Assembly: GCA_050331235.1 (NCBI GenBank)
Contig: JBHJHA010000015.1
Location: forward strand, 39,599 to 103,598
Source of the DNA: Leptolyngbyaceae cyanobacterium
GTDB taxonomy: Bacteria > Cyanobacteriota > Cyanobacteriia > Phormidesmidales > Phormidesmidaceae
Length of the DNA: 64,000 nt
Direction: 5' to 3'
Position numbers and translations under genes: made by a program. Of this stretch, positions 1 through 22,294 are shown in pieces (the first letter of the stretch is position 1; each line of letters opens with the position of its first letter). Under the pieces are notes generated by a model. It was given only the letters and a program-made list of their open reading frames with translations. It searched no databases and had not been told where the DNA came from.

Positions 1-518
1 CCTTTGTCTTCAAACATATCTAGGAGCCGCAGCACACCCAGGGGTAAGCTCTCGCCGTATAACACTTCCTGGCGATTGCCGATGACCGCCTCTGTACTGC
101 CGCCTCCGATGTCAAACACTAAGGCGGTGTCATCCATGAGCGAGATGGAGTTGCGTACAGCCAGAAAAATTAGGCGTGCTTCCTCTTTACCCGAGATAAT
201 CCTAGGCTCAAGCCCCGTCCGTTGGACTAACTCCGCTAAGAAGGCGTCACCGTTTTGAGCTTCGCGGATAGCGCTCGTAGCGGCGGTAATGACATCATCA
301 ACGCCAACTTGCTCAGCCAATTGCACGTAGCGATGAATGGTTTCGATGCCCGTTTGGAAGGCGCGATCGCTCAGCCGGTTGGTGGCAAAGACTCCAGCCC
401 CCAGCTTGATCATGGCCTTTTCGCGCTCGATCACCTTAAAGTTGCGCTGCGAAACGGCCTCCACGATGATCATGTGAATGGAGTTGGTGCCGATGTCGAT
501 CGCGGCCAGTTTCATCAT
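1..518 (-). CDS. ppx: Ppx/GppA family exopolyphosphatase (N-terminal part; runs off the window edge)
   Basis: Hand translation from ATG at 518: MMKLAAIDIGTNSIHMII...ATSAIREAQNG...IISGKEEARL...FDIGGGSTE...SLPLGVLRL, all hallmark Ppx/GppA (ASKHA) motifs. Absent from the ORF track because there is no stop in the window. Confidence 0.93.
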   Translation of the reverse strand, partial: MMKLAAIDIGTNSIHMIIVEAVSQRNFKVIEREKAMIKLGAGVFATNRLSDRAFQTGIETIHRYVQLAEQVGVDDVITAATSAIREAQNGDAFLAELVQRTGLEPRIISGKEEARLIFLAVRNSISLMDDTALVFDIGGGSTEAVIGNRQEVLYGESLPLGVLRLLDMFEDK

Positions 519-554
519 GGCTACTGTTCCCAGGGTTGAGTCTGCTAGGGCGGC

Positions 555-968
555 TTAGCGCTGCCAAATCCAGCCTACCAAGATCCCTAGAAAAGCTACC
601 GAGCCTAAAACTGCCAGAACAATGGAAACAACGAAAGAAGGTGAGCGGCGAGCCACGTAAATCAGATCGTTTCGCTGAATGCGCTGAAGCTGTTGCCGAT
701 GATCAAAAGCTGCGGCCAACATGGCAAAAGTGCCTAGGGCAATGAACGAAAGTCCGAGAATTCGACTCAGGCGAATCGGATTGCCGACACCCCCCAGGTT
801 TTGCTCTAAGACGGCTACGATGCGATCAATCCCTACGCCAAAGCTGATGAGGGACAGGCTTGTGCGAATCCAGGCCATCAACGTTCGTTCTTCGGCGGCG
901 CGGTTGCGTTCCTTCGCCAGCTCGGTGGCCGGATTAGGCGAGTTGGCGGGCTGGTTAGAGCTAGTCAT
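555..968 (-). CDS. DUF202 (YidH/Vtc1-like) small membrane protein
   Basis: ELAKERNRAAEERTLMAWIRTSLSLISFG motif followed by 3 hydrophobic helices. Confidence 0.88.
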   Translation of the reverse strand: MTSSNQPANSPNPATELAKERNRAAEERTLMAWIRTSLSLISFGVGIDRIVAVLEQNLGGVGNPIRLSRILGLSFIALGTFAMLAAAFDHRQQLQRIQRNDLIYVARRSPSFVVSIVLAVLGSVAFLGILVGWIWQR

Positions 969-1065
969 GCGTTTCTCTTCGACTCAACGGTAGGGCAAAA
1001 ACATCGCGATCACAAAAGCAAATTTTCAGGCAAATCACCTTAGAATAAGGCGCAAGTCTAAAACC

Positions 1066-1515
1066 ATGACGTTTGGCCAAAGTCATTTTGGAACTCCATC
1101 AGCCATGACTCCTCTCCAACCAGAACGGATTACCGGCCCCAATAACGAACTCGCCAAGGAACGCAATCGCGCCGCGGCGGAGCGGACCATGACCGCCTGG
1201 ATCCAAAATTGCTTAACTTTAATTGGCTTCGGTATTGCTGTGGACCAAATCAACCAGGCCCTCGATGCGCGATCAGCGGCCACACTGGTTGCCACAGGAC
1301 CCAGTGTGGCGCCGCTGATCGCGATTGGCTTTGTGGGCTTTGGAATGGCTTTATTGGTCATGGCTTGGCTGCAATATCGGTTAGAGATTCGCTCCATTGA
1401 ACGGGCAGATTATGTGCTGCTCTCGGTTAGTCAGCTAAATCAGATTGTCGGGTGGGCCATTGTTCTGTTTGGCGTTTTATCGGGCATTGCCTTGATTATC
1501 TTTGCTAGGGGCTAG
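1066..1515 (+). CDS. DUF202 (YidH/Vtc1-like) small membrane protein, inverted orientation
   Basis: ELAKERNRAAAERTMTAWIQNCLTLIGFG plus 3 TM segments; start could be 1105. Confidence 0.85.
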   Translation: MTFGQSHFGTPSAMTPLQPERITGPNNELAKERNRAAAERTMTAWIQNCLTLIGFGIAVDQINQALDARSAATLVATGPSVAPLIAIGFVGFGMALLVMAWLQYRLEIRSIERADYVLLSVSQLNQIVGWAIVLFGVLSGIALIIFARG

Positions 1516-1528
1516 GGCGGCGACCGGT

Positions 1529-1933
1529 TTAAGTTACTAACCGAAAGGTGATGAGCGCCACAATTACCAAGGCAATGACAAACAGTGCGATGGCTACTGT
1601 TTCCCCCAGGGGATAGCGCGGTGTGAACGCATAGTCTGACTGATTGAGGCGATGCAGTTCACCGCGGTAGTCGATGGCGGCGATGACCAATGCATAAACG
1701 CCTAAGCCAATCAGCACTAATCCTAAAATATGGGCAAATCGACTCGGATTAATCGCATCCCCAATGCTTTGGTACAGCAAACTCACCGTTTGATCAATCC
1801 CAAATCCGATGCCAATCAGGGTTAAGCTGGTGCGAATCCACGCCAAAAGGCTGCGATCGGCCGCAATACGGTTCCGCTCTTTAGCGAGTTCAAATTGCGT
1901 ATTGGGGGAGGGAGATGAGTCAGGGGAGGACAT
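1529..1933 (-). CDS. DUF202 (YidH/Vtc1-like) small membrane protein
   Basis: ELAKERNRIAADRSLLAWIRTSLTLIGIG plus 3 TM segments. Confidence 0.88.
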   Translation of the reverse strand: MSSPDSSPSPNTQFELAKERNRIAADRSLLAWIRTSLTLIGIGFGIDQTVSLLYQSIGDAINPSRFAHILGLVLIGLGVYALVIAAIDYRGELHRLNQSDYAFTPRYPLGETVAIALFVIALVIVALITFRLVT

Positions 1934-1955
1934 CGCGATTTTATATGCAGGTTAA

Positions 1956-3425
1956 TTAGGTTGGAGTCGTAGCGGGCGTCGCCGTCGCCGCCGCCTGACT
2001 GGACTGCTGTTTGAGCTGTAGTTTGACCCAGGCGTTGTAGGGGGTGGCCACCACCGCTCCCACAATTAGATAAGTCACGATGGAGGGCACCGCTGCCGGC
2101 TGCTGGTTGGCGATCGCAATAAACAACGCTAACCCCGCATTACGAGCGATCGTCGCCGTAGCCACGGCGGCTCGGTCTTCGAGGTTGGGACCGCCGAGCA
2201 CATGACCGATGGCGAGACCAATCGCCACCACCCCGGCAAACGCAATGAGCGTCTTCAGGCTAAATTGAGGCACTAAGTTGATGCTGATGGCTACCAAAAA
2301 GAAGGCCAAGACCAAAAACATTGTGTTGGCTACAGTGATCATCAGCGTGGCAATTTCATCGGCAAAGTCAGCCGAGACCCGCCGGATCAAAATGCCGATG
2401 CCAAGGGGGAGCAACTGCACCGTGGCGATTTGCTTGGCCACCGTCAAAAATGGAATCTGCTCCTCGGCTTGGGGAAAGAGCAGCGCAAACGCTGCTAACA
2501 AGAGGGGGGTAATTACCACGGCCGATGTGGCCAGTAAAATTTGTAGGGCCGCGGCGGTGTTGACGCTGCCCCCCGCCATGTTGACCCGCTTAGTCAGCAG
2601 GGGAGCCGCCGGAGCCGCCGCAAGAATGACTAACGCGATGCTGGAGCGCGGCGATAGCTGAAACAGCCACAGGGAAATCGCAGCTGCCAGCGGAAACAAC
2701 ACCAGCACCGCCACGAGCGATCGCGCCAACAAATTGGGCTGTTGGAATAGGGCCAACAGGCGCTGGGGAGCAACGGCCACGCCAATCGCCAACATAATGA
2801 TGAAGACCACTAGCCCCGCCAAACTCTGGATCAACGGGCTGGTCACTGAGAAAATTTCGCCTAGCTTGATTTCCCCGGAAATAAGGGGCACAAACGCCGC
2901 TAATCCGATAAACAGCAGCACCACCCCCACTGTGAAGCCCAGGGATCCCCCAGGGGAATATTTATATTCCCGGGCTTCGATGCTGCGCAGGGTCGTCCAA
3001 TGGCTGATTAACGCCCCCACCAAAGCCACAATGCCCAAGCCGATGAGACTCAGCCCCAGCAAGCGCTCTTCTGACAGCTGATTGATGCCTGTGGGGGCCC
3101 CGGTTTTGTCCACGTACTTGAAAAATCGGTCAATGCCAAAGCCAAAGCTAATCAGCGATAGCGATGTGCGAATCCAGGCCATAAGGGTTCGTTCTTCGGC
3201 GGCGCGGGTGCGCTCGCGGGCAAGCTCAGTACGAATCTCGGCTAGGTCGGTGCGCTGTTCAGCCAGCCCCGTGCGATTGGTTGACATTGCTGTGCGCTGC
3301 TTGGCCAGGTCGGTGCGATCGCTGGCGAGGTGGGTTCTCACCATCGCCAGTTCCGTGTTGCTCATCCCCTCATAGGGGGAAGCCGGCGTCTCGTCAGAAT
3401 TAGCGGGGGGATTGGTGGCAGTCAT
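1956..3425 (-). CDS. DUF202 domain fused to bile acid:Na+ symporter (BASS/SBF) domain
   Basis: N-terminal RT heptad repeats and ERTLMAWIRTSL; C-terminal multi-TM domain with LAAAPAAP, QLLPLGIGILIRR, GHVLGG and ARNAGLAL motifs typical of BASS. Confidence 0.82.
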   Translation of the reverse strand: MTATNPPANSDETPASPYEGMSNTELAMVRTHLASDRTDLAKQRTAMSTNRTGLAEQRTDLAEIRTELARERTRAAEERTLMAWIRTSLSLISFGFGIDRFFKYVDKTGAPTGINQLSEERLLGLSLIGLGIVALVGALISHWTTLRSIEAREYKYSPGGSLGFTVGVVLLFIGLAAFVPLISGEIKLGEIFSVTSPLIQSLAGLVVFIIMLAIGVAVAPQRLLALFQQPNLLARSLVAVLVLFPLAAAISLWLFQLSPRSSIALVILAAAPAAPLLTKRVNMAGGSVNTAAALQILLATSAVVITPLLLAAFALLFPQAEEQIPFLTVAKQIATVQLLPLGIGILIRRVSADFADEIATLMITVANTMFLVLAFFLVAISINLVPQFSLKTLIAFAGVVAIGLAIGHVLGGPNLEDRAAVATATIARNAGLALFIAIANQQPAAVPSIVTYLIVGAVVATPYNAWVKLQLKQQSSQAAATATPATTPT

Positions 3426-3495
3426 AGCTCAGGGTGGAGAAAAGGACCAAGTTCAGCGATGTGATGCAATCGAATGACGGACCCATCAAAGGGTG

Positions 3496-4512
3496 TTAAC
3501 TCGAGACTGGCGCAATCAACCGAAAGCCAATATGGGTTGTTCCCGTGTCGGGGGCTTGGGATTCTCGGGCGGCTGGTCGGTAACGGCTGCAATAGTTTTT
3601 AGCGCAAAGATAGGACCCCCCCTTAATCACGTGTACGGCCCCGTCCGCTGGCTTTTTGGGGTCGTAGCTAATGGCCCGATCCGGGCCCGTGGGGTCGGTC
3701 TTGTTGGCTTTGCCGGTGTGCTTGACGGTAAACCAATCGGTGGTCAGCTCCCACACGTTGCCCGTCATGTCGTAAAGGCCATAGCCATTGGGCGGGTAAG
3801 ACATCACGGGAGCTGTCCCTAAGTAGCGATCTGCTTGGGTATTGAAAAAGGGGAACAGCCCCTGCCAAGTGTTGGCGCGGTCTGCCCGGTATTGCTCTCC
3901 CCAGGTATAGGTTTGCCCTGCTTGCCCGCCGCGGGCTGCATATTCCCATTGGGCTTCGGTGGGGAGCGATCGCCCCAGCCAGTCGGCGTAGGCCACGGCA
4001 TCTTCATAGGCAATGTGCACCACGGGGTGATCGGCCTTGCCCTCAAGGGTGCTGTCAGGCCCAAAAGGGTGTTGCCAGTCGGCACCGGGGGTCCAGTGCC
4101 ACCAGCTTAAGTAGGCCACCTGCTCAATGCCTGCCGCCGGTGGTTCAAAAACTAGTGAGCCCGGGATCCTTTGGGCGTCTGGCAAATCGGGAAACTGAGC
4201 TTTGGAGAGCGGTCGTTCGGCCACGGTAGTGTAGCCTGTCGCGGAGACAAAGGCGGCAAAGTCAGCGTTAGTGACCTCATGAGTTGCCATGCAAAAGCTG
4301 CTGACAGTGACATTGGCAGCGGTTTCTTCTTCCACAAAATCGGGATTGTCAGACCCCATGGTAAAGGTGCCCCCCGGAATCAACGCCATGCCATCGGGAC
4401 AGTGGAGCGCAGTCGGGGCCGCGATCGCAGGCGCTACCAACCCCAGCCAGAGACTCAGACATCCCCCTAGGAATAACCATTGGCATTGATCAAAAGCACG
4501 TTTCAAAGTCAC
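3496..4512 (-). CDS. Formylglycine-generating enzyme (sulfatase-modifying factor) with N-terminal signal peptide
   Basis: HPVVHI, LPTEAQWEYAARGG, NGYGLYDMTGNVWE, KGGSYLCAKNYCSRYRPAAR (both catalytic Cys), HIGFR. Confidence 0.92.
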   Translation of the reverse strand: MTLKRAFDQCQWLFLGGCLSLWLGLVAPAIAAPTALHCPDGMALIPGGTFTMGSDNPDFVEEETAANVTVSSFCMATHEVTNADFAAFVSATGYTTVAERPLSKAQFPDLPDAQRIPGSLVFEPPAAGIEQVAYLSWWHWTPGADWQHPFGPDSTLEGKADHPVVHIAYEDAVAYADWLGRSLPTEAQWEYAARGGQAGQTYTWGEQYRADRANTWQGLFPFFNTQADRYLGTAPVMSYPPNGYGLYDMTGNVWELTTDWFTVKHTGKANKTDPTGPDRAISYDPKKPADGAVHVIKGGSYLCAKNYCSRYRPAARESQAPDTGTTHIGFRLIAPVSS

Positions 4513-4656
4513 TGATATCTACCTGGGCGTCCGACCGACCTGACTAGGTTGGAATCTTAGAAGAGTGACGTTAAGAGTTCACTAAGCTGCTGCTCCGATG
4601 GCTGTGTCACGGGCGGGGGCAATTCAAGCATGAGCCCAGCCAGCGGCGCTCAAGGT

Positions 4657-5622
4657 TTAGCGACGGCGCTTTAGGGTTTGTCGGGGCGTCTCGTCAAACA
4701 TCGCTGCATAGGCTTTGGCAAAGTGGCCGAGGCTGTGAAAGCCCCACAGGTGTGCAATATTTGTCACCGTCTCATAGTGCGGATCACCCCGTAATAAAGC
4801 ATTGCGGACCCCATTAAGTCGTTGGTATTTGAGATAAGTCATGGGGCCCATGCCAAAAATTTCTTGAAAGCCATAGCTGAGCGATCGCCGACTAGCGCAG
4901 ACCGCATCACTCAGGTCAGCCAAGGTAATGGGGCGATGCAGATTACTTCGCATGTAGTCTCTAGCAGATTCGATGATTTCGGCTCGACGTAAAGGCTTCA
5001 GGCATTTCGCTGAGGTTGATGTGTGTAGCGTATCCATGAGCAAGGGCAGCAAATCACCCCGAATTAGCCCCGTGGTTTCTGGCGACTGGGCATAGTGGGG
5101 CTGATGGTGCAACACAGCGACTAACTGCTGTAAATACTGGCGATAACCAATCATGGGATCGGTATTCAGCTCAACGATATTACGTCGCAGAAAGGCTGTA
5201 TCTAGCCCATCTTGACCCCTTCGCTCGATCAGACTGTGAAATAGAGTCTGATTAACCTGCACAACGACCAGTTCAAATCCTTGCTCGGCGGTGGCCACAT
5301 TGGTCTCGCGCTGTAGGTCAAAGCCAAAAATGCAGTTGGTCGATATCGGTGTCGCGTGGGCATGGTGTGAGCGGTGGTCTGGACCTAAGAAGGTGGCAAA
5401 GGGTAAGACCTCATTGGGTTTTTGACCCATAATCTCGACTCTACTGTTGAACTTAAGCCATAGGACTGAGCATTGCCGCAAATCAAACCGCATGACCTGC
5501 GCCGCAAAATTGTTCGGCTCAAGTTGCGTAAACACTAGTCCCCATTCTCGAAATGCCGCCGCACATTGATCAGCGTCGTGAAAGTCGAAGCTTTGCAAGG
5601 GGCTGTTCGAATGCATTGACAT
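4657..5622 (-). CDS. AraC family transcriptional regulator
   Basis: C-terminal double HTH: ITLADLSDAVCASRRSL...IAHLWGFHSLGHFAKAYAAMFDETPRQTL. Confidence 0.9.
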   Translation of the reverse strand: MSMHSNSPLQSFDFHDADQCAAAFREWGLVFTQLEPNNFAAQVMRFDLRQCSVLWLKFNSRVEIMGQKPNEVLPFATFLGPDHRSHHAHATPISTNCIFGFDLQRETNVATAEQGFELVVVQVNQTLFHSLIERRGQDGLDTAFLRRNIVELNTDPMIGYRQYLQQLVAVLHHQPHYAQSPETTGLIRGDLLPLLMDTLHTSTSAKCLKPLRRAEIIESARDYMRSNLHRPITLADLSDAVCASRRSLSYGFQEIFGMGPMTYLKYQRLNGVRNALLRGDPHYETVTNIAHLWGFHSLGHFAKAYAAMFDETPRQTLKRRR

Positions 5623-6035
5623 GCTCAGAAATTGCTCGGTGCGATGAACTGTAGGCTATCTTGTCCCAGACTTTCAACCGGATAAACAGATTCAGTTGGT
5701 CCGCGGCTCCACCTGAAGATAGGCTTCAGCAATATTGCACAAATCGTATATTGCCAAATCTAGCTAGACGCTGATAGCGATTCTAAAGCAGAGGCCCATG
5801 AGCGCAAAAACCCATTCTCAAGTTAGCCCCTGATTTTCGTTACATATTGATACACCCCGCAGTTCACTGATATTTGGCTGACTTCTACGTTCTTTTGCTA
5901 TGCGCAGCTCGCTTCCTCGCGTTCTTTAATCGCAGCTTAAAAGAGTCGCTTTAGCTTGAGAGCTTGAGATTGCCATATCTAGAAGACCTGGATTTTGGCT
6001 CTATCAAAATCCGTTGTTACACATGTGAAACGTTT

Positions 6036-7709
6036 ATGCTGCAGAGTTTTCATCATCCGAATCAGCTTCGGACCTGGTTGAAAAGGTCAGCTGCGATCGC
6101 CCTCACGGCTACCTTTCTCTTCGTGGGAAATTTGTCTTGGAGCAGTCCTGCGATCGCCGCGACGTATTCGTCCTATGGCGAGGCCAAAGCCGCGACCACC
6201 AGCACCTCTGAAAAACCCAATATCATCGTGATTTGGGGTGACGACATCGGGCAAAGTGACATCAGTGCCTATACAAAAGGTCTGATGGGCTTCCGGACTC
6301 CCAACATTGACCGCGTTGCTGATGAGGGGATGATCTTTACCGACTATTATGCAGAGCAGAGCTGTACAGCTGGTCGGTCAGCTTTCATTACTGGCCAGAC
6401 TGTATTTCGCACGGGCTTGAGCAAGGTCGGTCTCCCCGGCGCAGACTTGGGGCTCAGGGCCGAAGATCCCACCATTGCCGAACTGTTGAAAGAACAGGGC
6501 TACAACACCGCCCAGTTTGGTAAAAACCACTTGGGTGATAAGGATGAGTTTTTGCCGACAGCCCACGGCTTTGATGAGTTCTACGGCAACCTTTATCACT
6601 TAAACGCCGAAGAAGAGCCGGAACTACGGGACTATCCGCCTGCTGATCGATTCCCCAACTTTAAGAAAAAGTACGGCCCCCGGGGCGTGCTGCATAGCTT
6701 TGCCAAAGCGAATGGTAGTCAGGAAATCGAAGATACCGGCCCGCTCACCAAAAAGCGCATGGAAACTATCGACGACGATATTGCTGATCGCTCGGTGGAA
6801 TACATCAAACAACAAGCCTCGACAGGCGAGCCCTTCTTCCTGTGGACCAACTTTACCCACATGCACTTCCGCACTCACACTAAGCCCGAAAGCTTGGGGC
6901 AATCTGGTCTCTGGCAGTCTTTCTACCATGACACCATGATTGACCACGACAAAAACGTGGGTCAGGTGTTGGATGCGATTGATGAAGCCGGCATTGCTGA
7001 TAACACCATCGTGATTTACAGCACCGATAACGGCCCCCACATGAACTCTTGGCCGGATGCGGCAATGACCCCCTTCCGTAGTGAGAAGGATACGGGTTGG
7101 GAAGGCGCTTTCCGGGTGCCGGCGATGGTGCGCTGGCCGGGACACATCGAGGCTGGCAGTGTCTCTAACGGCATTGTCTCTCACCTTGACTGGATGCCGA
7201 CCTTTCTGGCGGCAGCAGGGGTTCCCGATGTGAAGGAAAAATTGCTGAATGGCTACAAAGCTGATGGCAAGCGCTTTAAGGTGCATCTGGATGGGTACAA
7301 CGTTCTGCCCTATCTAACCGGCGAAGAGAAAGAATCTCCCCGAGAATCGATCTTCTACTTCTCGGATGACGGCGATCTACTGGCCCTGCGGTATGACAAC
7401 TGGAAGATGCATTTTGCGCAGCAGCGGACCCCTGGCACTCTGGATATTTGGGCAGAGCCCTTTACTGAGCTCCGGGTACCTTTCATCTACAACCTGCGGA
7501 CGGATCCCTACGAGAAAGCTAGCATCACATCCAACACCTACTTTGATTGGATGATTGATCACGTTTACCTGTTGACTCCGGCGCAGCAATATGTGGGTGA
7601 ATTCCTGGAAACCTTCAAGGAATATCCGCCGCGCCAGAAAGCTGCTAGTTTCTCCGTTGATCAGGTCCTAGAGAAGCTCGAAAACGGTGCAGTTGGCGCT
7701 GCCTCGTAG
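6036..7709 (+). CDS. Exported Cys-type arylsulfatase
   Basis: KPNIIVIWGDDIG, SCTAGRSAFITG (CxxxR formylglycine motif), GKNHLG, STDNG; N-terminal signal peptide ending AIA; ATG at 6036 preferred. Confidence 0.92.
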   Translation: MLQSFHHPNQLRTWLKRSAAIALTATFLFVGNLSWSSPAIAATYSSYGEAKAATTSTSEKPNIIVIWGDDIGQSDISAYTKGLMGFRTPNIDRVADEGMIFTDYYAEQSCTAGRSAFITGQTVFRTGLSKVGLPGADLGLRAEDPTIAELLKEQGYNTAQFGKNHLGDKDEFLPTAHGFDEFYGNLYHLNAEEEPELRDYPPADRFPNFKKKYGPRGVLHSFAKANGSQEIEDTGPLTKKRMETIDDDIADRSVEYIKQQASTGEPFFLWTNFTHMHFRTHTKPESLGQSGLWQSFYHDTMIDHDKNVGQVLDAIDEAGIADNTIVIYSTDNGPHMNSWPDAAMTPFRSEKDTGWEGAFRVPAMVRWPGHIEAGSVSNGIVSHLDWMPTFLAAAGVPDVKEKLLNGYKADGKRFKVHLDGYNVLPYLTGEEKESPRESIFYFSDDGDLLALRYDNWKMHFAQQRTPGTLDIWAEPFTELRVPFIYNLRTDPYEKASITSNTYFDWMIDHVYLLTPAQQYVGEFLETFKEYPPRQKAASFSVDQVLEKLENGAVGAAS

Positions 7710-7791
7710 GACGGGCGAGATTCTGGGCTATTCTGGCCACTGTTTTTCCAACAGTAGTCGATAGGAACGGCCCAAACCCTCCATATTGCCT

Positions 7792-7824
7792 GGGGTAGAG
7801 ACGAAAGTTGTCTCTACCCCTTTT
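7792..7824 (+). terminator. Intrinsic terminator after sulfatase
   Basis: GGGGTAGAGAC-gaaagtt-GTCTCTACCCC followed by TTTT. Confidence 0.7.
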
Positions 7825-7890
7825 GTCACATAGGGTCAATTTCTTTTGGCTTTTGGACTCGCTTTGACTGACGATTAATTGCTGGTTTGA

Positions 7891-10350
7891 ATGAAATCTT
7901 CCGTTACTGCAACCATCATTCTGTTTTTCTCGGGGCTGGCAGCCCTGATTTATCAAACCATTTGGATTAAGCAACTGGCACTCGTGGTGGGTGTTGAGGT
8001 CTATGCTGTCACCATTGGCATCAGTGCATTCTTTACTGGGCTAGCACTGGGCAATTTATGGATTGGCCGCTGGACCGATCGCAGCAAAACTCCTTTGAGA
8101 CTCTATGCGGGTTTAGAGTTCGGCATTGCTATTACAGGAGTTGCCACCACCTGGACCTTGGCCCATAGCGATCGCCTTTTTGTCTCCCTGCAAGACACCG
8201 TCGGATTCTTGGCCTGGGGCTGGCCTTTGTTGTTGGTTGGTATTCCCGCAACGCTGATGGGGGGCACATTGGTAGCGTTGCTGAGAGCCTGTGAACCCGC
8301 CGAGGAGTTGGTCGGGCGCACCGCTGGGCTGCTCTATGCTGCCAATACCGCTGGCGCGATCGCCGGCACCTTAATCACCGCTTTTTACCTGATTGTCAAT
8401 TTAGGTATCCAACACACAGCCTGGGCTGCCGCCACTATTAATATCATTCTGGCGCTAGCTGCCCTTTCACTTCAGTCCGTGTGGCAACCCGCAGTACCTT
8501 CTCCCAATCTCTTGGCAAAACCTCAGCAGCGGGTGTCTTTGGCTTTAGTGCTGTACGCGATCGCTGGAGGACTGGCGCTGGGCTATGAGGTCATTTGGAC
8601 CCAAGCCATTGTGCAGTTTTTGAGCACGCGAGCCTACGCCTTCGCCGTCATCCTCGCGACCTATTTATTGGGCCTAACGTTGGGCAGCTGGGTGATCTCG
8701 TTTTGGAGCGATCGCCTGCGTTATCCCTGGGTGGTATTTGGCAGTTTGATTGCTAGTGCGGGCATCTTTGCCTTGGCTAGCTTTACCTTCACAGATATTT
8801 GGCTGCTCAAAGCTCAGCATGATTGGGGGCTATGGGCCTGGCAACTGACCCACAACCGCATGGCCATGAAACTCACCACTTTTGCTGTGGCCACAGGTGT
8901 CTTTGTCTTACTGCCCACCCTTTGCTTAGGCGCTGCCTATCCCCTGGCGATTCGGCTGGTAACCCGCACTCAGCATGTTGGAAAAGACACAGGCTTGCTG
9001 ACGGCGTTAAATACGCTGGGGGGTATCGTGGGGACGGGAGTGACCGGATTTCTCTTGGTGCCCCATTTAGGACTTGTCCACAGTATGGTCTTATTGGCAG
9101 GGGTCGCGACAATCGTAGGGGCGATCGCCGTTCTACAAGCAGCGACGGGACCTGCGAGCAAAGTCGCCATTGGTACCGCTGTAGTCGCGGTGATGGGGTT
9201 GGCAGTCATCACCCCAGCCGACAACTTTGCCCAAATGCTGACGATTCAACATCCCGGCAAATTGCTGTTTCATCAAGAAAGCGCCGGTAATACCGTTGCT
9301 GTGATTGAGCAGCCCACCTCCCAAGGCTCATTTCATCGACTGTATATTCAGGGTGTCTCCAATACGGGCGATGTCTTCCCTTCTCTGCGCTACATGCGAT
9401 TGCAGGCGCTATTGCCGTTGATCATTCATTCCGGGCAGCCTCGATCGGCCATGGTGGTGGGGCTGGGCTCTGGCATCACGAGTGGTTCGCTGTTGACCTA
9501 CCCTGACCTAGAGGAGCAAGTCACCTACGAGCTACTACCCCCGGTAATCGAAGCGGCTCAAACATTTGATGGCAATTTTGAGGTGACGCGCAATCCTCGG
9601 GCGACGATTGAAATTAGTGATGGTCGCCATGAGCTTTTGCGGACTCAAAAGCAATTTGATCTCATTACATTGGAGCCTCCCCCACCTTCTGCCTCTGGAG
9701 TCGTGAACTTGTACTCTCGTGACTTTTACGAACTGGCAAAATCGAAGCTAGCTCCCGATGGCTTATTTGCCCAATGGTGGCCACTAGCTACCCAAAATGA
9801 TGCTGATTCGCGATCGTTGGCACGCAGTATGCTCGATGCGTTTCCCTATGTCACGGTATGGAGTACCGAGTTTCACGAAATGATGCTGATCGGTTCCATG
9901 TGCCCTCTAGAGCTGCAGCCTGAGCAGATCCGCGAGCGGTTTGCCATTCCCTCGATTCAAACGGCGCTAACCGAAATTGGGATCCAATCACCTCAGGCCT
10001 TACTGGCCACCTATGTCACCGATCGCACTGGCCTGGAGAGCTATGTACAGGATGCGCCTGCGGTTACCGATGACCGCCCTTTGATCGAATATGCCGACTG
10101 GGTGCGCCCCGGAGAAATTGCTCGGGTATTGCCAGAAGTCATGAAAACAAATACTGTAGTGCCGCTACCCAAAGATGATCCTTGGCAGGCTGAAATTAAT
10201 CAGGAACGATACAACCTGTCACGTTTGTATAAAGCCCAATTGTCCTTATACGAAGGGGAAGACAATGACTGGTATTACCAAATTGTCGAAGTGTTGGAGG
10301 CCGACCCCGACAATGCTTACTATCGATGGATGTTCAAAGAAAGTACCTAA
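7891..10350 (+). CDS. Fused MFS-like membrane / spermidine synthase-like SAM-binding protein
   Basis: About 12 TM helices with SGLAALIYQ and LYAANTAGAIAG motifs; C-terminal VVGLGSGIT, DGRH, FDLITLEPPPP, NLYSRDFY. Confidence 0.85.
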   Translation: MKSSVTATIILFFSGLAALIYQTIWIKQLALVVGVEVYAVTIGISAFFTGLALGNLWIGRWTDRSKTPLRLYAGLEFGIAITGVATTWTLAHSDRLFVSLQDTVGFLAWGWPLLLVGIPATLMGGTLVALLRACEPAEELVGRTAGLLYAANTAGAIAGTLITAFYLIVNLGIQHTAWAAATINIILALAALSLQSVWQPAVPSPNLLAKPQQRVSLALVLYAIAGGLALGYEVIWTQAIVQFLSTRAYAFAVILATYLLGLTLGSWVISFWSDRLRYPWVVFGSLIASAGIFALASFTFTDIWLLKAQHDWGLWAWQLTHNRMAMKLTTFAVATGVFVLLPTLCLGAAYPLAIRLVTRTQHVGKDTGLLTALNTLGGIVGTGVTGFLLVPHLGLVHSMVLLAGVATIVGAIAVLQAATGPASKVAIGTAVVAVMGLAVITPADNFAQMLTIQHPGKLLFHQESAGNTVAVIEQPTSQGSFHRLYIQGVSNTGDVFPSLRYMRLQALLPLIIHSGQPRSAMVVGLGSGITSGSLLTYPDLEEQVTYELLPPVIEAAQTFDGNFEVTRNPRATIEISDGRHELLRTQKQFDLITLEPPPPSASGVVNLYSRDFYELAKSKLAPDGLFAQWWPLATQNDADSRSLARSMLDAFPYVTVWSTEFHEMMLIGSMCPLELQPEQIRERFAIPSIQTALTEIGIQSPQALLATYVTDRTGLESYVQDAPAVTDDRPLIEYADWVRPGEIARVLPEVMKTNTVVPLPKDDPWQAEINQERYNLSRLYKAQLSLYEGEDNDWYYQIVEVLEADPDNAYYRWMFKEST

Positions 10351-10359
10351 TCCTCGGGA

Positions 10360-10508
10360 TTGATCATCAGCTCAAATCAGCAGAAGCAAGCGCCGAGTTG
10401 TGGCAAGTCAGGGTGGCGACTATTTGCCGTTGGCGAAATCGGCCTTCTTTAACGCCCACCTTGAAGAAGACTTTGGCCCGTGCCCCCGCAAGGCACCACG
10501 CTGGATAA
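10360..10508 (+). mobile_element. IS630-family transposase remnant
   Basis: SAEASAELWQVRVATICRWRNRPSLTPT resembles the HTH of cyanobacterial IS630/ISY100 transposases; short and degraded. Confidence 0.5.
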
Positions 10509-10726
10509 AGTCGTCGCTAACTATCGATGTGCCTGACGCTAGTCCGATTCTTATTCTTAAGTAGAATCACATAGATCGGGCGATCGCGGCGACAGATGCC
10601 GCCAGTCGAGATAATGTACCCAAAAAAACAGATGGGATTTCACAGCTGAAGGAAACTTCGCAAATGACAGAGGTGAGAGCGGTGCCAATCCCTTGAAGCG
10701 CTCCACCGTATGCTTGCTCGACAGCC

Positions 10727-11512
10727 TCAATCCGCTTTGAACAAGCGCCCGACGGCGGTGGTCAAAAATTCACGGGGCACGAAGCGCCCAGCATTGACTA
10801 AAATCTGATTTCTCAATCCCCCTGTCACCACATTAGAATCCCCGCGATCAAGGGCCGCTAGCGCTTGCTGTACCACCGTTTCGGGTGAGGCTAAACTGTC
10901 TTGTCCAGGAATATTTTCCATGGAAGTGGGAAAGTCCGCGGTTTTGAAAAATTCCGTCTCTGTGGGACCAGGACAAACGCCCAGCACCTTGATCTTGTAA
11001 GGGCTGCATTCAAACCACAGCGATTCGCTAAAGCTGAGCACAAAGGATTTAGTGGCGGCATACACTGCAAAGTAGGGAATCGGTTGGAAAGCTGCGGTGG
11101 AGCTGATATTCAAAATGCTGCCGGACTGCCGAGCCTTCATGCCTGCGAGGGCGCGATAGGTGAGCTCAACCAGGACGCTCACATTGAGCTGGATCATGTT
11201 GAGATAGGCGCTGAGGTCGCCTGCGGCCAGCTCCCCGTATACTCCAAATCCAGCATTGTTAATCAGCATATCGAGCTCGATGCCCTGTTGCCCAAGCTGG
11301 GTAAATATGGTCTCGGCGGCGTGATCAGCCAGCAAATCCTGCACGATGACGGTGCTCTGGATGTGGTGAGCTTGGCTGAGGCGATCGCCAATGGCCTGCA
11401 ATTTGTCTTGGGAGCGAGCTACCAAAACGAGGTCGTAGCCTTTCTTGGCCAACTGTTCTGCAAAGGTGGCGCCAATGCCGGACGAAGCGCCTGTAATAAG
11501 TGCTGTTGTCAT
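10727..11512 (-). CDS. Short-chain dehydrogenase/reductase
   Basis: TGASSGIG, NNAG, YAATK. Confidence 0.93.
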   Translation of the reverse strand: MTTALITGASSGIGATFAEQLAKKGYDLVLVARSQDKLQAIGDRLSQAHHIQSTVIVQDLLADHAAETIFTQLGQQGIELDMLINNAGFGVYGELAAGDLSAYLNMIQLNVSVLVELTYRALAGMKARQSGSILNISSTAAFQPIPYFAVYAATKSFVLSFSESLWFECSPYKIKVLGVCPGPTETEFFKTADFPTSMENIPGQDSLASPETVVQQALAALDRGDSNVVTGGLRNQILVNAGRFVPREFLTTAVGRLFKAD

Positions 11513-11633
11513 ATTTGAGATGTTTTCTCAACCTTTTGACTGTAGGCTCAAAAGGGAGAAATGCAAGTCTACCGGAAGTCAGACTTTGAAGGTTGCCACG
11601 GGCTTGTAAGGCAAAGGGCTGACAGATATTTCT

Positions 11634-13412
11634 ATGCTGACGCTAACCCAGGTTTGGGGTGCACTCTTGATCTTAGTCCTTGGACCACTGGTGGGTGCCC
11701 TGCCGCTGAGTCATTGGGTGACTTATTCCTTGGCTGGGACGCGATCGCGCACGCTACCGCCTGGCAATGTGGGGGTACCCGTGGCGTTTGCGGTGGGGGG
11801 CACGCTGGCGGGCGGTCTCGCCCTGCTGCTAGAGGCGGCCAAGGGCGTGGGTGTTGTATGGCTAGCGCGCTACTACTTTCCGACCGACGCCACTTGGGAG
11901 GTGGTGGCGCTAATGGCGTTGGTCATGGGGCGTTACTGGTCGGCCAAGGCCGTGGGGACGACCAGCGTGCTCTGGGGGGCGATCGCCCATCGCCCGGTTA
12001 CAGCTGGACTCACCTTACTCGTCAGCTTTTTAGGCTTTACGATCTTTCGGGAACGGCAGCAGGGGCGCTGGCTGGTCTTGATTTTGTTTCCGCTGATGAC
12101 AGCGCTCAATCAAGCCAGCGGCATGCAAGTTTTGATGACGGTCTGCTTGAGCGGACTGATCGGGTGGATTTACCAAACCATTCCAGAAGACTTGGAGGTG
12201 CCCACGCCGGCTACTCGCTTGGAGTCACGCCGCTTGTTTGGGTTCTTTCGCAGCGATCGCGCATTGCTGTCCCTCGCTCAACCCTTGGATGCCGCAACTG
12301 CCGGGAGTCAAGCGGCTCACTTATCCCAGCTCATGGCGGCGGGGTATCCCGTGCCCCAGGGCTATGTGCTGCCTGCTGGCGATGATCCGACTATGCTGCT
12401 GGAGATTACTCAGCCTACGGTCGCAGCGCCGGTGACCGTGCAGCCATCGCTAATGAGTGACGTCCCGGCGATCGCGGCCAGTGCGGGTCAATACTTTACC
12501 CAGTCGGACATTACCTCGCCCGAGGCGCTATATGTCGCCATCAATCGTTGCTTTAGCACCTACGACCAGCCCCATGCTCGGCAATATCGGCGCGATCGCG
12601 ATTTGCCCGAGGGCGGTTTAGCCGTTTTGGTACAGCAGCAAGTCCTAAGCCTGTGCGGTGGGGTAGCCGCCAGCCGTGCTCCCTTTACTGGGCAGGGGGA
12701 TGCCGTCATCATCGAGGCGCTCCTAGGACCGAGTACTCAAGTGACGGCCGGTCAGCGGTTACCCGAACGCTACGAAGTGACCGTACAGGTAGACGATTTG
12801 CCGAGCGATCGTGCTGATGCCGAGGGTTGGCAGCTACCTGAGGCCCTGACGCTAACGGTCACGGGCACAGGCGAGGTGCCACACCGGCTGCTGCAGGCAG
12901 TTGCCTTTTTAGCCCGTCATTTAGAACGGCAGTCCCATGGCATTCCCCAACTGGTGGAGTGGAGTTTTGATGGCGATCGCCTGTGGCTATTGCGCAGTCG
13001 TCCCCAAATCCCCACGGCTGCCCTGCCTGACGAGCGGGCTGCTGCCCTGCCCGGCACGGGAGATGTCGATGTTTCCACTACTCCCCTCCGGTCGGCCATT
13101 ACTGGGTTACCCGTCTGTCCAGGAACCGTGATGGGTCAGGTACATGTCCTGCAAGCGTTGAAAGATGTGCAAACCCTGCCCGCTGAAAGTATTTTGGTGG
13201 TGCCTTATCTTAAGGCCAGCGAGCTGCCTGCGATCGCTCAGACGGGGGTGAAAGGACTCATTGCTGAAGCCGGAGGACAACTTTCTGATGGCGCGATCAC
13301 AGCCCGAGAATATGGCTTGCCCACGGTCATCCTGCCACATCGGCAAAATCACTTAGTTGCCCGACAGAGAGTCCGCCTCAATGGCGCGATTGGCTCAGTA
13401 GAATTGCTGTGA
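11634..13412 (+). CDS. PlsY-like acyltransferase fused to degenerate PEP-utilising (PPDK-like) domains
   Basis: N-terminal TM domain with GNVGV and EAAKG; GYPVPQG, ASAGQY, AVLVQQQV, VEWSFDG; swivelling domain GGQLSDGAITAREYGLP. Confidence 0.78.
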   Translation: MLTLTQVWGALLILVLGPLVGALPLSHWVTYSLAGTRSRTLPPGNVGVPVAFAVGGTLAGGLALLLEAAKGVGVVWLARYYFPTDATWEVVALMALVMGRYWSAKAVGTTSVLWGAIAHRPVTAGLTLLVSFLGFTIFRERQQGRWLVLILFPLMTALNQASGMQVLMTVCLSGLIGWIYQTIPEDLEVPTPATRLESRRLFGFFRSDRALLSLAQPLDAATAGSQAAHLSQLMAAGYPVPQGYVLPAGDDPTMLLEITQPTVAAPVTVQPSLMSDVPAIAASAGQYFTQSDITSPEALYVAINRCFSTYDQPHARQYRRDRDLPEGGLAVLVQQQVLSLCGGVAASRAPFTGQGDAVIIEALLGPSTQVTAGQRLPERYEVTVQVDDLPSDRADAEGWQLPEALTLTVTGTGEVPHRLLQAVAFLARHLERQSHGIPQLVEWSFDGDRLWLLRSRPQIPTAALPDERAAALPGTGDVDVSTTPLRSAITGLPVCPGTVMGQVHVLQALKDVQTLPAESILVVPYLKASELPAIAQTGVKGLIAEAGGQLSDGAITAREYGLPTVILPHRQNHLVARQRVRLNGAIGSVELL

Positions 13413-13599: not shown

Positions 13600-14202
13600 A
13601 TGAGCTACCCCAGTTTCAGTAGTTACTTAAAGATCCTGAGCAGTTTGCTTAAGCACAAAGGACTGTGGCTACAGCAAGAATCAAGAGAGTTAGCCTATCT
13701 TTGTCAGGTTTATGGCAAGCAGCTCAAGCTCAGCCACACTGACCGAAAAATCCTCTTGATGGCAGCCTATTGCAAAAATCTCGGCGCGCTGTATGTGAGC
13801 GATTTTTTACTCGAGCAAGAGTTTCGAGATCACGGTTTGATGATGTCTAGCCTGAGCACCTGGTTTGTCGAAAGTGTGCGCATTGCCCGTGAGGCTGACC
13901 TCGAAGAGGTGGCCATTATTTTAGAGCAGTATCACCAGCGGTCGGTGCCAAAGCATAAACTGGCCCGGATCTTTCAAGTTTTGAATACATGGGTGGCCTG
14001 CCAACAAGAAAAGGGCTGGCGTCATCCGATGACGGAGCGAGAAGCCCGAGTCATTTTGGAGCAGCGGGCCCGCTTACGCTGGGCCGACCCCATCATCGTG
14101 CGTCATTTTGTGCACTACTGCGATCGCACAGGCGGTCTGTTTCGGCGCACCGAGTCCCTAGCCGAGACCGCTGAAATGGATACTGCAGTTGCCCTGACTT
14201 AG
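13600..14202 (+). CDS. Degenerate HD-GYP/HD-like domain protein
   Basis: LLMAAYCKNLG, IILEQYH, LARIFQVLNTWVA and DPIIV align with the HD-GYP scaffold, but HD and GYP residues are absent; AGGAG RBS upstream. Confidence 0.55.
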   Translation: MSYPSFSSYLKILSSLLKHKGLWLQQESRELAYLCQVYGKQLKLSHTDRKILLMAAYCKNLGALYVSDFLLEQEFRDHGLMMSSLSTWFVESVRIAREADLEEVAIILEQYHQRSVPKHKLARIFQVLNTWVACQQEKGWRHPMTEREARVILEQRARLRWADPIIVRHFVHYCDRTGGLFRRTESLAETAEMDTAVALT

Positions 14203-17389: not shown

Positions 17390-18636
17390 GATTCCAGCGG
17401 TTCACTAGGTATCGACACTGAGCGGTGAGGGGCACCAGCAATACAGCATCCAGCTAGCAGCAAGGCCACCACTCCCAATAGGGTCGGCAAGATTAGTGGC
17501 TGTGCCCTGAGGCTATCGACAAAGGTGCCAAACAAAGAGGAGGCCGCTGCTCCACCGCTGAAAAACATGCCGGTGCCCAACCCTGCTTTTGGAGAGGGGA
17601 CCAGCGATAGCGCAAAGGGAATTGTGCCGTTGGAGACCAGACTAAACGCAGTGCCAAACAGTACCGCCAGGATAACCGCTGCCCCCGCCTGCTGTACGGC
17701 TCCAACCACCACGCAGACAAATGCCAGTACGGCTAGTCCTGCAATCATGGCTCGGCGGTTACCTAGCCGTACTGCCAGCACTCCAGCGGGCAGCGCGGTC
17801 ATGGCCAGCGCGATAAAAATTACCCCCAGCACCAAACTCGCATTGGCGTTAGGTACCTGGGTATTCAAAACTCGAGAAAATAACAGCATGAGAGAGCGGA
17901 AGCCTAGGGTGACGCCCACCCCGGCACCAAACACCAGGACCAGAGCGATCGCCGAAACCTCTGCAGCCATTGTCGCGGCCTCCGCCTCCGCCGGAGGGAC
18001 TGAGGTAGTCACAGTCGCTTCGGGAGCGGCCCAACGCAGGGCCACCATGGCCAACAGCAACACCGCTGACCCTAGGCCAAATGCCACCACAGGACCTAGA
18101 TTCAAAATGCGTTCACTGGCGAGGGGCCCCATCGCTCCGGCGACACCGCCCACCAGCGTTAAGACACTCGCCGCTTGGGGTAGACGTGTGGCAAAGGCAT
18201 AACGACCTAGCAGCGACATCGCCGGGCTGCGAAACAGGGTCATCGTCAAAGCCCACAACACTAACATCAGCGGTAGTGTCCAGCGTCCCACGGCAGATAG
18301 GCCCCCCAGGGCGATCGCTGGCAAACTGACAAATACCCCCGCTGCCAAGACGCCTCCCAAGCCAATCAGAGGAAACCGAGTGCCCATCTGGCGCTGAAGG
18401 CGATCGCTCAAGCTGCCCATGAGCGGCTCCATCACCATAGCCAGCAGATTTTCAATCACCAATAACCCCGTCGCCAAGGTGCGCTCCAACCCGACCTGGG
18501 TGAGCAAATCGACCAGGTACAGGTTGTAAATGACCCACATGAGCGCGATTGCTCCCTGCACTAGTGCCAGGCTGCCCACCTGAGTCCAGAGAATCTTGGT
18601 ATTGGTATTGGCCGTGCTCGTTTCGCGGGAAGACAT
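17386..18636 (-). CDS. MFS transporter
   Basis: About 12 TM helices, GSLSDR motif A, FRSPAMSLL. Confidence 0.85.
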   Translation of the reverse strand: MSSRETSTANTNTKILWTQVGSLALVQGAIALMWVIYNLYLVDLLTQVGLERTLATGLLVIENLLAMVMEPLMGSLSDRLQRQMGTRFPLIGLGGVLAAGVFVSLPAIALGGLSAVGRWTLPLMLVLWALTMTLFRSPAMSLLGRYAFATRLPQAASVLTLVGGVAGAMGPLASERILNLGPVVAFGLGSAVLLLAMVALRWAAPEATVTTSVPPAEAEAATMAAEVSAIALVLVFGAGVGVTLGFRSLMLLFSRVLNTQVPNANASLVLGVIFIALAMTALPAGVLAVRLGNRRAMIAGLAVLAFVCVVVGAVQQAGAAVILAVLFGTAFSLVSNGTIPFALSLVPSPKAGLGTGMFFSGGAAASSLFGTFVDSLRAQPLILPTLLGVVALLLAGCCIAGAPHRSVSIPSEPLES

Positions 18637-18888
18637 GGAACATAGACCCCAATTAGGGACAAATCAAGCGACAGACACTCGGTGATAGCCAAGACGCAGT
18701 TCCAAAGCCCGTTGCTTGCTTTCCGGGGAATGGATGATCAAGTCTCGTGCTCGCCCACCCTATCAAACCTGGCGGTACGGTGGGCTTGCCGCAACCGTTT
18801 TTAAGCAACCGGAGGTGCATCAGCGTCCAGCCCAATGGACAGCTACGGGCTAACTACAGCGCGTTTCAGGCTGTTCCAGACATGACTA

Positions 18889-19005
18889 ATACCCATTCTG
18901 CAAAATAGCGCTACAGATCGAAGGTCCCCCGCGATCACCGTCCCCTTGGAAAGGGGGCTTAGCCCATACTGTATGGAACTGCGCCCTATTCAAGGGAATT
19001 GGCGG
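18889..19005. repeat. Diverged copy of ~113-bp MITE-like dispersed repeat
   Basis: ATACCCATTC...AATAGCGCTACAGAT...CCCCTTGGAAAGGGGG...GAATTGG, similar to the copies at 40714 and 50533. Confidence 0.55.
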
Positions 19006-19086
19006 ATGAGTTTAATGTGCTGAGCTTTAATTCAGAGAACTGGGACAAACATTGCATTTAAATAAAAAACTGAGATTAACCCACGA

Positions 19087-19116
19087 CAGGGGCGCTAGAC
19101 ATCTCTAACGCCCCTG
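19087..19116 (-). terminator. Hairpin downstream of DUF2811 gene
   Basis: On the minus strand CAGGGGCGTTAGA-gatg-TCTAGCGCCCCTG; no long U tract. Confidence 0.5.
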
Positions 19117-19132
19117 CACAGCTGTTGACCAA

Positions 19133-22277: not shown

Positions 22278-22294
22278 TACAGCGACCCAGCGAC

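Follow-up and report, generated by a model that had tools for sequence, protein, structure and literature searches.

This analysis concerns a block of genes at the start of the window, a stretch of 64,000 nucleotides from a Leptolyngbyaceae cyanobacterium (assembly GCA_050331235.1, contig JBHJHA010000015.1), in which three small DUF202 genes and a DUF202-BASS fusion gene stand beside genes for a formylglycine-generating enzyme (FGE), an AraC-family regulator and a Cys-type sulfatase. DUF202 and sulfatase genes cluster far beyond chance, sulfatase and cassette were gained or lost together within the genus, the DUF202 units are homologous to Vtc1 and keep both basic ring positions of its pore, and the carrier half of the fusion has lost its Na+ ligands. 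The block is read here as an accessory sulfatase module with a Vtc1-like anion pore, likely passing sulfate, that serves sulfate-ester breakdown rather than polyphosphate metabolism, a reading held with about as much belief as doubt.

Gene content and boundaries

The genome carries four DUF202 genes in total, all in this block (Table 1), with d2 on the opposite strand to d1, d3 and the fusion, and d3 following the fusion gene after 22 bp. Pfam searches bore out the DUF202, FGE, AraC and sulfatase genes named in the original prediction, but the plain Na+ symporter domain listed with them proved to be a BASS domain fused to DUF202. The block had also been called an island. The GC content of its genes (0.51-0.585) is near that of the genome (0.526), so the term rests on a patchy distribution and not on composition. 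The IS630 scar said to bound it on the right came down to a weak helix-turn-helix match, 34% over 41 aa to an IS630 HTH protein (E 0.85 against the full set of fetched ORFs and 1e-5 in pairwise comparison), with no Pfam match at E<=1 and no copy elsewhere in the genome.

Table 1. Features of the block, with positions in the window
Feature	Position	Strand	Basis
Ppx/GppA gene, 5' part (521 aa protein)	1..518	-	PF02541; starts 36 bp after d1
DUF202 subunit d1 (137 aa)	555..968	-	PF02656 E 6e-18, 3 predicted helices
DUF202 subunit d2 (149 aa from first ATG; second ATG 1105)	1066..1515	+	PF02656 E 6e-13
DUF202 subunit d3 (134 aa; ADR motif type)	1529..1933	-	PF02656 E 4e-17
DUF202-BASS fusion (489 aa)	1956..3425	-	PF02656 and PF01758 above cut-off
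Formylglycine-generating enzyme (FGE-sulfatase)	3496..4512	-	PF03781 E 5e-79
AraC-family regulator, divergent from sulfatase	4657..5622	-	Pfam; EutR/AndR-like below their cut-offs
Cys-type S1 sulfatase (CTAGR)	5964..7709	+	PF00884 E 1e-51; likely start ATG 6036
Terminator-like hairpin, 13 pairs, after sulfatase	7792..7820	+	such sites about as frequent as in shuffles (13 vs 11.6)
MFS/spermidine-synthase-like fused protein (819 aa)	7891..10350	+	NF037959 104.9 bits vs cut-off 40
Possible IS630/ISY100-type helix-turn-helix remnant (weak)	10332..10460	+	weak HTH match

An Rfam search of positions 1-12000 gave no match, promoter and terminator predictions were as numerous as in shuffled sequence, and no conserved upstream motif was found among seven sulfatase upstream regions. 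Control of the module by the AraC regulator is suggested by gene position only; among eight relative cassette loci, a 52% orthologue occupies the same position in one (L038). The MFS/spermidine-synthase fusion, omitted from the original prediction, had no counterpart among 40 relatives, and a sulfatase gene was present in 7 of the 16 metagenome loci, many of them short, that carry its relatives.

DUF202 proteins and the Vtc1 pore

To our knowledge, DUF202 is a widespread family whose function in bacteria is unassigned. All four units score well above the PF02656 gathering cut-off of 23.4 bits (65.4, 49.5, 63.0 and 63.7 bits). In d1, residues R21, A25, R28 and W33 are invariant across an alignment of 94 sequences, and the structural model (pLDDT 74) places helices at 13-58, 64-99 and 110-136; d3 was aligned among 17 sequences and d2 also with its own orthologues. 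In a quick, unrooted tree, used for grouping and not for the order of events, the d2-type orthologues form a group of six rows (support 99) and the DUF202 proteins of the window lie separately from YidH and YidG. One candidate source on the family, PMC10434189, was set aside, its 'DUF202' matches being to DUF2023.

The DUF202 profile A2 matched four Vtc1 sequences, and Vtc1 only (E 8e-4 to 2e-3), with the A(N/E)ERT motif aligned between them and d1 R28 falling on Vtc1 R31; Vtc1 K24 lies outside the printed alignment and was mapped to d1 R21 by the seven-residue spacing. K24 and R31 form the basic rings of the VTC pore (PMC9911596; 10.1101/2023.01.27.525886). Both basic positions are kept in d2, d3, the fusion (R72, R79) and YidH, and the -7 position is Arg in 291 of 297 DUF202 proteins and Asp in YidG. 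A phmmer search with d1 alone found no VTC chain, and fold searches with the d1 model (Foldseek, VIA-align) gave VTC chains no better than E 0.7-0.9 and Z 9, mixed in with many unrelated bundles of helices; such searches alone are not discriminating for likeness to Vtc1. A complex prediction with two copies of d1, one each of d2 and d3, and fusion residues 55-190 scored 0.21 against a mark of 0.32 and weighs neither way. The four units likely co-assemble into a Vtc1-like ring with an arginine-lined pore, through which sulfate or a similar sulfur oxyanion would pass.

The homology to Vtc1 also speaks for a retained VTC role, in which the ring, with the neighbouring Ppx, would move polyphosphate or phosphate: ppx follows d1 on the same strand after 36 bp, and some cassette loci contain a HAD phosphatase or 5'-nucleotidase. 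However, ppx was present in none of 198 DUF202 loci (a scoring that left out ppk, pst and phoU neighbours), which leaves the polyphosphate link unsupported. The best matches of this ppx in five genus relatives reach only 40-45%, and it was not found in the cassette-bearing relatives G001, G011 and G012; it is a non-core paralogue and no conserved part of the module. Moreover, the genome, 95.5% complete, has no match to the TTM polymerase domain PF09359, and Pho-box-like tandem repeats are at background level. A polyphosphate role is thus considered very improbable.

The fused carrier

The fusion opens with an RTxLA heptad helix, followed by the DUF202 unit and then by a BASS-fold carrier, and has 174 detected homologues; a genome scan with the single fusion protein as query gave no match, whereas an alignment-based scan did. 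Its model (pLDDT 79) matches ASBT/NTCP structures (Foldseek E 2e-9, TM by target 0.77). Nevertheless, in a profile alignment to 28SV none of the seven Na1/Na2 ligands of ASBT_LB, as listed in 10.64898/2026.02.20.706973, is identical: Q47, S84, N85, S98, T102, E233 and Q237 correspond to V240, L277, T278, A291, Q295, A424 and R428. Arg428 thereby occupies the position of the Na2 glutamine (Q237), and its ARN motif recurs in 118 of 120 homologues. The prediction of a Na+ symporter domain is therefore not supported, and, joined to DUF202 and stripped of its sodium ligands, the BASS domain is no plain stand-in for YidK in the symporter role. The domain likely carries an organic substrate or product, sodium not being used. 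The fusion marks a BASS subfamily labelled sodium symporter in databases yet without sodium ligands.

Sulfatase and maturase

S1 sulfatases share the motif C-x-(P/A)-x-R, present here as CTAGR at C134 of a protein scoring 176 bits against PF00884, with a signal-peptide-like stretch after its likely start. The FGE cysteine pair has the form CxxxxC; in the block's FGE (PF03781, 265.9 bits) it is CAKNYC at C303, common to the cassette FGEs, and hydrophobic residues 13-31 form a signal-peptide-like N-terminus. From these features, both proteins are probably exported, and the FGE would activate the sulfatase outside the cytoplasm. The sulfatase would then strip sulfate from an ester, sulfated sugars being plausible substrates. 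Its nearest solved sequence is 7AJ0 (E 9e-64 over residues 79-555), which is PsFucS1, a fucoidan-active member of subfamily S1_13; the sulfatase motif is given as CXXXRXXXXXG in the same source, which describes the specificity of S1_13 as otherwise unknown (PMC8484680).

Association with sulfatases

Enrichment of DUF202 near sulfatases, by which the original prediction was to be judged, was found well above expectation in two phyla. Among 200 genomes of the window's phylum, the two genes lie within 10 kb in 16 of the 39 that have both (0.44 expected), across six families, and in a second phylum within 5 kb in at least 11 of 54 genomes (1.53 expected). In a third, only 3 of 30 had them as neighbours (0.35 to 0.65 expected), most DUF202 loci there being scored by coordinates only and six stretches read as sequence. 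Of 13 relatives in the genus, seven have both the DUF202 set and the sulfatase, and the other six have neither. Among 23 distinct fusion loci, 14 have the FGE gene directly adjoining the fusion; of the 17 that span at least 12 kb, 15 include a sulfatase. The sulfatase partner varies between DUF202 lineages, and so does the maturase, which is either FGE or anSME.

The association has clear limits. Eleven of the 15 sulfatase-linked class-A loci belong to one tight subclade, kin rather than independent cases, and outside it only 4 of 16 class-A loci have a sulfatase. No sulfatase lies near any of the 62 class B and C loci, nor in any of 16 long loci that hold multiple small DUF202 genes and no fusion, and in L097, L113, L122 and L128 the trio of d1, d2 and d3 is found with neither sulfatase nor BASS. 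Class B (RDHLANERT) has sulfur neighbours of another kind: 18 of its 34 loci hold TauE, CysK, Sbp, CysT or rhodanese, which occur in none of 57 loci of classes A and C; the 28 class C loci have no sulfur neighbours. The preference for a sulfate-ester link over polyphosphate is thus favoured by the enrichment, the joint gain and loss and the absence of polyphosphate synteny, but many DUF202 genes occur without a sulfatase.

These limits give some room to the view that DUF202 has no part in sulfate handling and is one cargo among the small membrane genes (CLC, MarC, UPF0114, DUF1622, MFS, bestrophin-like) of an accessory island for ion, acid or osmotic homeostasis that also carries sulfatases. 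Membrane genes of this kind recur in the same loci (MFS, UPF0114, MarC, CLC, DUF1622, DUF1269), trios and pairs of DUF202 occur without a sulfatase, the parts of the module are spread across more than one contig in this genome, several in all, and the sulfatase-linked loci are related by descent. Against this, three unrelated types of sulfatase and both maturases are found paired with DUF202, the YidHG operon lacks such cargo, and class B has a link of its own to sulfate-assimilation genes, so that this view is regarded as unlikely. Rather less likely still is a role as accessory subunits that form no sulfate pore, and either act as scaffold or gate for the BASS carrier, whose substrate would be an organosulfate or its alcohol product, or aid sulfatase maturation or export with the maturase. 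The fusion to BASS, a free BASS gene nearby in 14 of 29 class-A loci, the adjacency of DUF202 to the maturase gene and the persistence of yidHG-anSME or yidHG-yidF adjacency even without a sulfatase would all fit such a role; however, every class keeps the basic rings, even class B, which lacks both BASS and maturase, and in E. coli the transporter at the locus is of SSS type, with no BASS present.

Function and wider meaning

A passive pore fits both gene layouts: fusion loci have exported sulfatases, whereas those next to YidGH or a lone DUF202 gene are cytoplasmic. Against the reading, SulP genes are already present in the genome, and CysT is present in only 1 of 13 genus relatives, with or without the cassette; sulfur scavenging is therefore no obvious need. 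Replacement of the CysTWA sulfate ABC transporter by the cassette was rejected on the same distribution of CysT.

More broadly, and only tentatively, bacterial DUF202/YidH may be the prokaryotic counterpart of the VTC pore and represent a new class of sulfur-oxyanion channels, hetero-oligomeric in build and brought on repeated occasions into sulfatase operons and sulfate-assimilation clusters; in this block, d1, d2, d3 and the fusion would form a channel joined to a sodium-independent BASS carrier, an arginine replacing the Na2 ion. No paper describing a DUF202 anion pore of this kind was found. If true, a sulfur-oxyanion role would explain DUF202, yidG and yidH, would tell how organisms with sulfatases get rid of sulfate or regain it, and would suggest that the eukaryotic polyphosphate channel derives from a general anion pore.

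Comparison with known systems

The original prediction described the block as mirroring the E. coli yid locus with non-orthologous parts, and its gene list for that locus (yidL, yidK, yidJ, yidI, yidH, yidG, yidF) was correct. Both hold an AraC regulator, a transporter, a Cys-type sulfatase, several DUF202 genes and a maturase in one block, and the parts are indeed non-orthologous: the sulfatase is 22% identical to YidJ, the AraC protein 27% over 109 aa and the DUF202 proteins 37-48% over about 35 aa, with no match to YidK or YidF among the block proteins. The mirror is imperfect, however, since predicted export differs, the carrier is a BASS fusion and not an SSS protein, AraC recurs in only one of the eight relative loci, and the overlapping YidH-YidG pair is not matched. 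The maturase role does fall to a genuine FGE gene where the yid type is anSME, but both it and the sulfatase look exported, while YidJ lacks a signal peptide and looks cytoplasmic. YidF, a putative maturase, matches the C-terminal half of anSME (E 4e-10) but is a truncated 165-aa fragment without CxxxCxxC. An enteric relative (L252) has yidK-yidJ-yidH-yidG-anSME in one run, its anSME being full (370 aa, CxxxCxxC); L253 has yidH-yidG-anSME adjoining a sulfatase, and L250 and L251 have yidHG-yidF without one. Nearly all E. coli genomes (5421 of 5426) carry yidG and yidH; the phenotypes reported for yidH relate to H2O2, NADPH and iron (PMC4054840), and yidH was picked in a D-alanine export screen with D-alanine accumulation unchanged (PMC10299036).

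Among enzymes, the nearest solved relative, PsFucS1 (7AJ0), is an exported Cys-type sulfatase, as the block's sulfatase putatively is. With the BASS/SLC10 carriers (ASBT_NM, ASBT_Yf, ASBT_LB, NTCP, PanS) the fusion shares the fold and a PF01758 match above cut-off, but it scores far under the TIGR00841 and PanS cut-offs and is joined to DUF202.

The closest likeness for the DUF202 units is the VTC pore (Vtc1/Vtc3/Vtc4; PDB 7YTJ, 8I6V, 9UMG). The three-helix DUF202 unit is common to both, as are basic residues at the K24 and R31 positions and the presence of several paralogous units, some standing alone and some fused to another domain. They differ in that the block's genome has no TTM polymerase and the fusion partner is a BASS-fold carrier; VTC is a pentamer with a 3:1:1 subunit ratio (PMC9911596), whereas the block holds four DUF202 genes, and their neighbours are sulfatase genes.

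Gene Content of the Block

The block contains all four DUF202 genes of its genome (95.5% complete), which are three small subunit genes (d1 to d3) and a DUF202-BASS fusion, here called the cassette, with genes for an FGE (sulfatase maturase) and a sulfatase nearby. The named homologues came from cyanobacteria. AraC and FGE are separated by 144 bp, FGE and the fusion by 70 bp, the fusion and d3 by 22 bp, and d1 and ppx by 36 bp. The original prediction lacked the fused MFS/spermidine-synthase-like gene, and of the IS630 scar it had placed at the right-hand edge a weak HTH resemblance was recovered and nothing beyond that. The fused gene again adjoins the same sulfatase type in seven other loci (L256, L257, L260-L262, L264, L265), followed in L257 alone by a DUF202 gene.

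Genes of the block and its right flank, from the ORF list and Pfam/NCBIfam scans of the window
Feature	Position	Strand	Basis
Ppx/GppA gene start (partial)	end at 518	-	Pfam/NCBIfam
DUF202 d1	555-968	-	Pfam
DUF202 d2	1066-1515	+	Pfam
DUF202 d3	1529-1933	-	Pfam
DUF202-BASS fusion, 489 aa	1956-3425	-	Pfam
FGE	3496-4512	-	Pfam
AraC	4657-5622	-	Pfam
Sulfatase	5964-7709	+	Pfam
Fused MFS/spermidine-synthase-like protein	7891-10350	+	Pfam/NCBIfam
PlsY-like acyltransferase domain fused to PPDK_N and PEP-utilising domains	11634-13412		Pfam
200-aa protein, partial HD_5 domain, like NosR-family c-di-GMP phosphodiesterases without receiver	13600-14202		Pfam/NCBIfam

SulP genes are present in the same genome, and Sbp, CysT and TauE had no match there; of the 24 family relatives, just 2 gave a CysT match, compared with 14 of the 16 other families in the sample. 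A second sulfatase cluster of this genome (contig G000:C84, about 18200-27100) has two large sulfatases, one split into frames of 578 and 208 aa. It also includes LOR, CLC and an unnamed protein of 266 aa, which in relatives are found within the cassette locus.

Association of DUF202 with Sulfatases

The predicted enrichment of DUF202 near sulfatases was borne out in the phylum of the window, where 16 of the 39 genomes with both genes, spanning 6 families, had them within 10 kb, against 0.44 expected (random placement; own genome and three marginal hits excluded). The sample comprised 200 genomes, with DUF202 in 77 and sulfatase in 54 (E ≤ 1e-15). In a second phylum (149 genomes, the centre G236 excluded and the unpublished G268 counted solely in the tallies of the DUF202 and sulfatase searches), at least 11 of 54 genomes had the two within 5 kb, against 1.53 expected, a lower bound from 150 of 341 sulfatase matches. 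The signal was weak in a third (251 genomes; DUF202 in 46, of which 43 were searched for sulfatase at E ≤ 1e-40; both in 30), with 3 of 30 against 0.35 (5 kb) or 0.65 (10 kb). One genome, G509, carries three separate DUF202-sulfatase neighbourhoods (L254, L255), one with a bestrophin-like gene.

Of 109 candidate regions in the phylum sample, 100 were taken (the nine omitted were mostly close kin of these), with G226 and G228 retained although already known as sulfatase-linked; L048 and L051 brought the set to 102, and a local profile found DUF202 in 98. Class A, the window's type (29 loci), had sulfatase in 15, BASS in 14 and DUF1622 in 9, and class D had sulfatase in 2 of 4. Class B (RDHLANERT) had sulfatase in 0 of 34 loci; 18 of them carried TauE, CysK, Sbp, CysT or rhodanese, 19 carried Cad and 19 LysR. 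The 28 class C loci had no sulfatase and no sulfur neighbours of the class B type, Cad or LysR. Since DUF202 lies with LysR and a CadD-like Cad beside TauE, CysK and sbp-cysTWA in class B loci (L130, L135, L142, L147, and also L157, L160, L186, L195, L201, L222 and others), a sulfur-related role is suggested for cyanobacterial Cad proteins too.

That DUF202 is simply membrane cargo travelling along with its neighbours seems unlikely to us. As cautions against reading too much into the class counts, a single subclade supplies 11 of the 15 class A sulfatase cases (remaining class A, 4 of 16), and DUF202 trios and pairs without sulfatase exist; in a quick tree with many unresolved forks, the classes came out as groups and sulfatase-linked members fell in several.

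The Cassette in Relatives

Four or more DUF202 genes occur in 7 of the 13 other genomes of the genus, the same seven that match the window sulfatase (in G007 a 50% paralogue adjoining the cassette, in G008 on a different contig from it), and 6 have neither. In G014, of the same family, the cassette is present and the window sulfatase query was unmatched. Across eight cassette loci of relatives, the three small genes reappear together with the fusion, in an order that differs between loci. Their recurring neighbours are FGE, MFS, UPF0114, extra BASS, MarC, CLC, LOR and DUF1622; AraC is retained in L038 only.

Relative loci and a genome scan of 78 loci (best 80 of 550 matches) gave 23 distinct fusion loci after removal of 2 duplicates, these being kin and not independent. 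Among the matches listed, the three small genes occur in 17 of 23, sulfatase in 16 (15 of the 17 loci of at least 12 kb), and FGE adjoins the fusion in 14. With such neighbours DUF202 might be an accessory subunit of the carrier or maturase, a reading we consider decidedly improbable. In L097, L113, L122 and L128, a d3-d2-d1 trio of unchanged relative orientation stands without BASS, FGE or sulfatase.

A polyphosphate role for DUF202, beside which a ppx gene lies in the window, appears very remote. That gene was retained in 0 of the 8 relative cassette loci, its best matches were just 40-45% in five relatives (three with the cassette), and neither Ppx paralogue matched any ORF in 198 DUF202 loci. 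The own genome (95.5% complete) had no polymerase domain of VTC, the yeast polyphosphate polymerase/channel, and no ppk, pst or phoU was among the recurring neighbours in the annotated subset.

Comparison with the E. coli yid Locus

The original prediction likened the block to the yid locus, built from non-orthologous parts. The K-12 region indeed holds yidF, yidG, yidH, yidI, yidJ, yidK and yidL, of the families that the prediction had named, and by sequence comparison none of the block's parts is orthologous to its counterpart. YidF resembles the C-terminal half of anSME (E 4e-10), and CxxxCxxC was not found in it. At 80% cover, yidFGH is present in 5421 and yidJK in 5108 of 5426 E. coli genomes. 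Among stretches chosen after their coordinates were seen, G547 has the order yidL / yidK-yidJ-yidH-yidG-anSME (370 aa, radical SAM plus SPASM) and G635 yidH-yidG-anSME with a sulfatase alongside; G478 and G571 have yidH-yidG-yidF with no sulfatase within the 6.5 kb read, the nearest on the contig lying more than 100 kb off. One study reports yidH as a hit of a D-alanine screen, without a transport effect (PMC10299036), and another links it to H2O2 sensitivity, low NADPH and high iron (PMC4054840).

Proposed Mechanism

The reading we favour, and to which we give an even chance, combines an exported FGE-sulfatase pair, a passive DUF202 oxyanion pore and a sodium-free BASS carrier. The pair would act on a sulfate ester, DUF202 units would form a passive pore, like that of the VTC pore subunit Vtc1, through which sulfate or a related oxyanion would pass, and an organic partner would be carried by the BASS domain without sodium; we infer assembly, conductance, substrate and regulation alike.

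By a hydrophobicity heuristic (not SignalP), a signal-peptide-like N-terminus is present in every sulfatase listed from the fusion loci and in each accompanying FGE for which a value was returned, and is absent from YidJ and from most sulfatases beside single DUF202 genes; a passive pore would fit both layouts. The nearest solved relative of the window sulfatase is PsFucS1. As context only, one study places cyanobacterial sulfatases with signal peptides in mats rich in sulfated EPS (PMC9723792).

The structure model of the fusion (pLDDT 79) matches ASBT and NTCP. Unlike ASBT_LB, with seven Na+ ligands (10.64898/2026.02.20.706973), the fusion has V, L, T, A, Q, A and R at these positions in a profile alignment. 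An ARN motif is shared by 118 of 120 homologues, and most of the free BASS genes in such loci have it too. In other transporter families, a fixed Arg can stand in for a Na+ ion. Members of a BASS subfamily in sulfatase loci, among them the fusion, L141:10547-11398 and L034:4527-5393, have in common an (A/Q)RN motif that puts Arg at the Na2 position, and they are likely to be sodium-independent.

Comparison with the VTC Pore

No published description of a DUF202-sulfatase link or DUF202-BASS fusion was found in the literature covered (most subscription journals and supplements were outside its scope, and supplement gene tables could bear on regulation); a paper indexed under DUF202 in fact concerns DUF2023. 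RTxLA heptad repeats, of differing copy number among homologues, lengthen the first helix of the fusion (window 3180-3425, residues ~20-80).

A 94-sequence DUF202 profile matched Vtc1 chains only (E ~1e-3), aligning DUF202 ANERT with Vtc1 AEERT, which pairs Vtc1 R31 with d1 R28; K24 is matched to R21 from the spacing. These two d1 positions are invariant in the 94 sequences, and Arg stands at -7 in 291 of 297 DUF202 proteins. The VTC pore is a 3:1:1 pentamer in which K24 and R31 make up the two basic rings (PMC9911596; 10.1101/2023.01.27.525886), and DUF202, judged by alignment and spacing, appears to keep a basic residue at both positions. The cassette combines known families in an arrangement not described in the literature covered, and would be a variant of the VTC pore kind.
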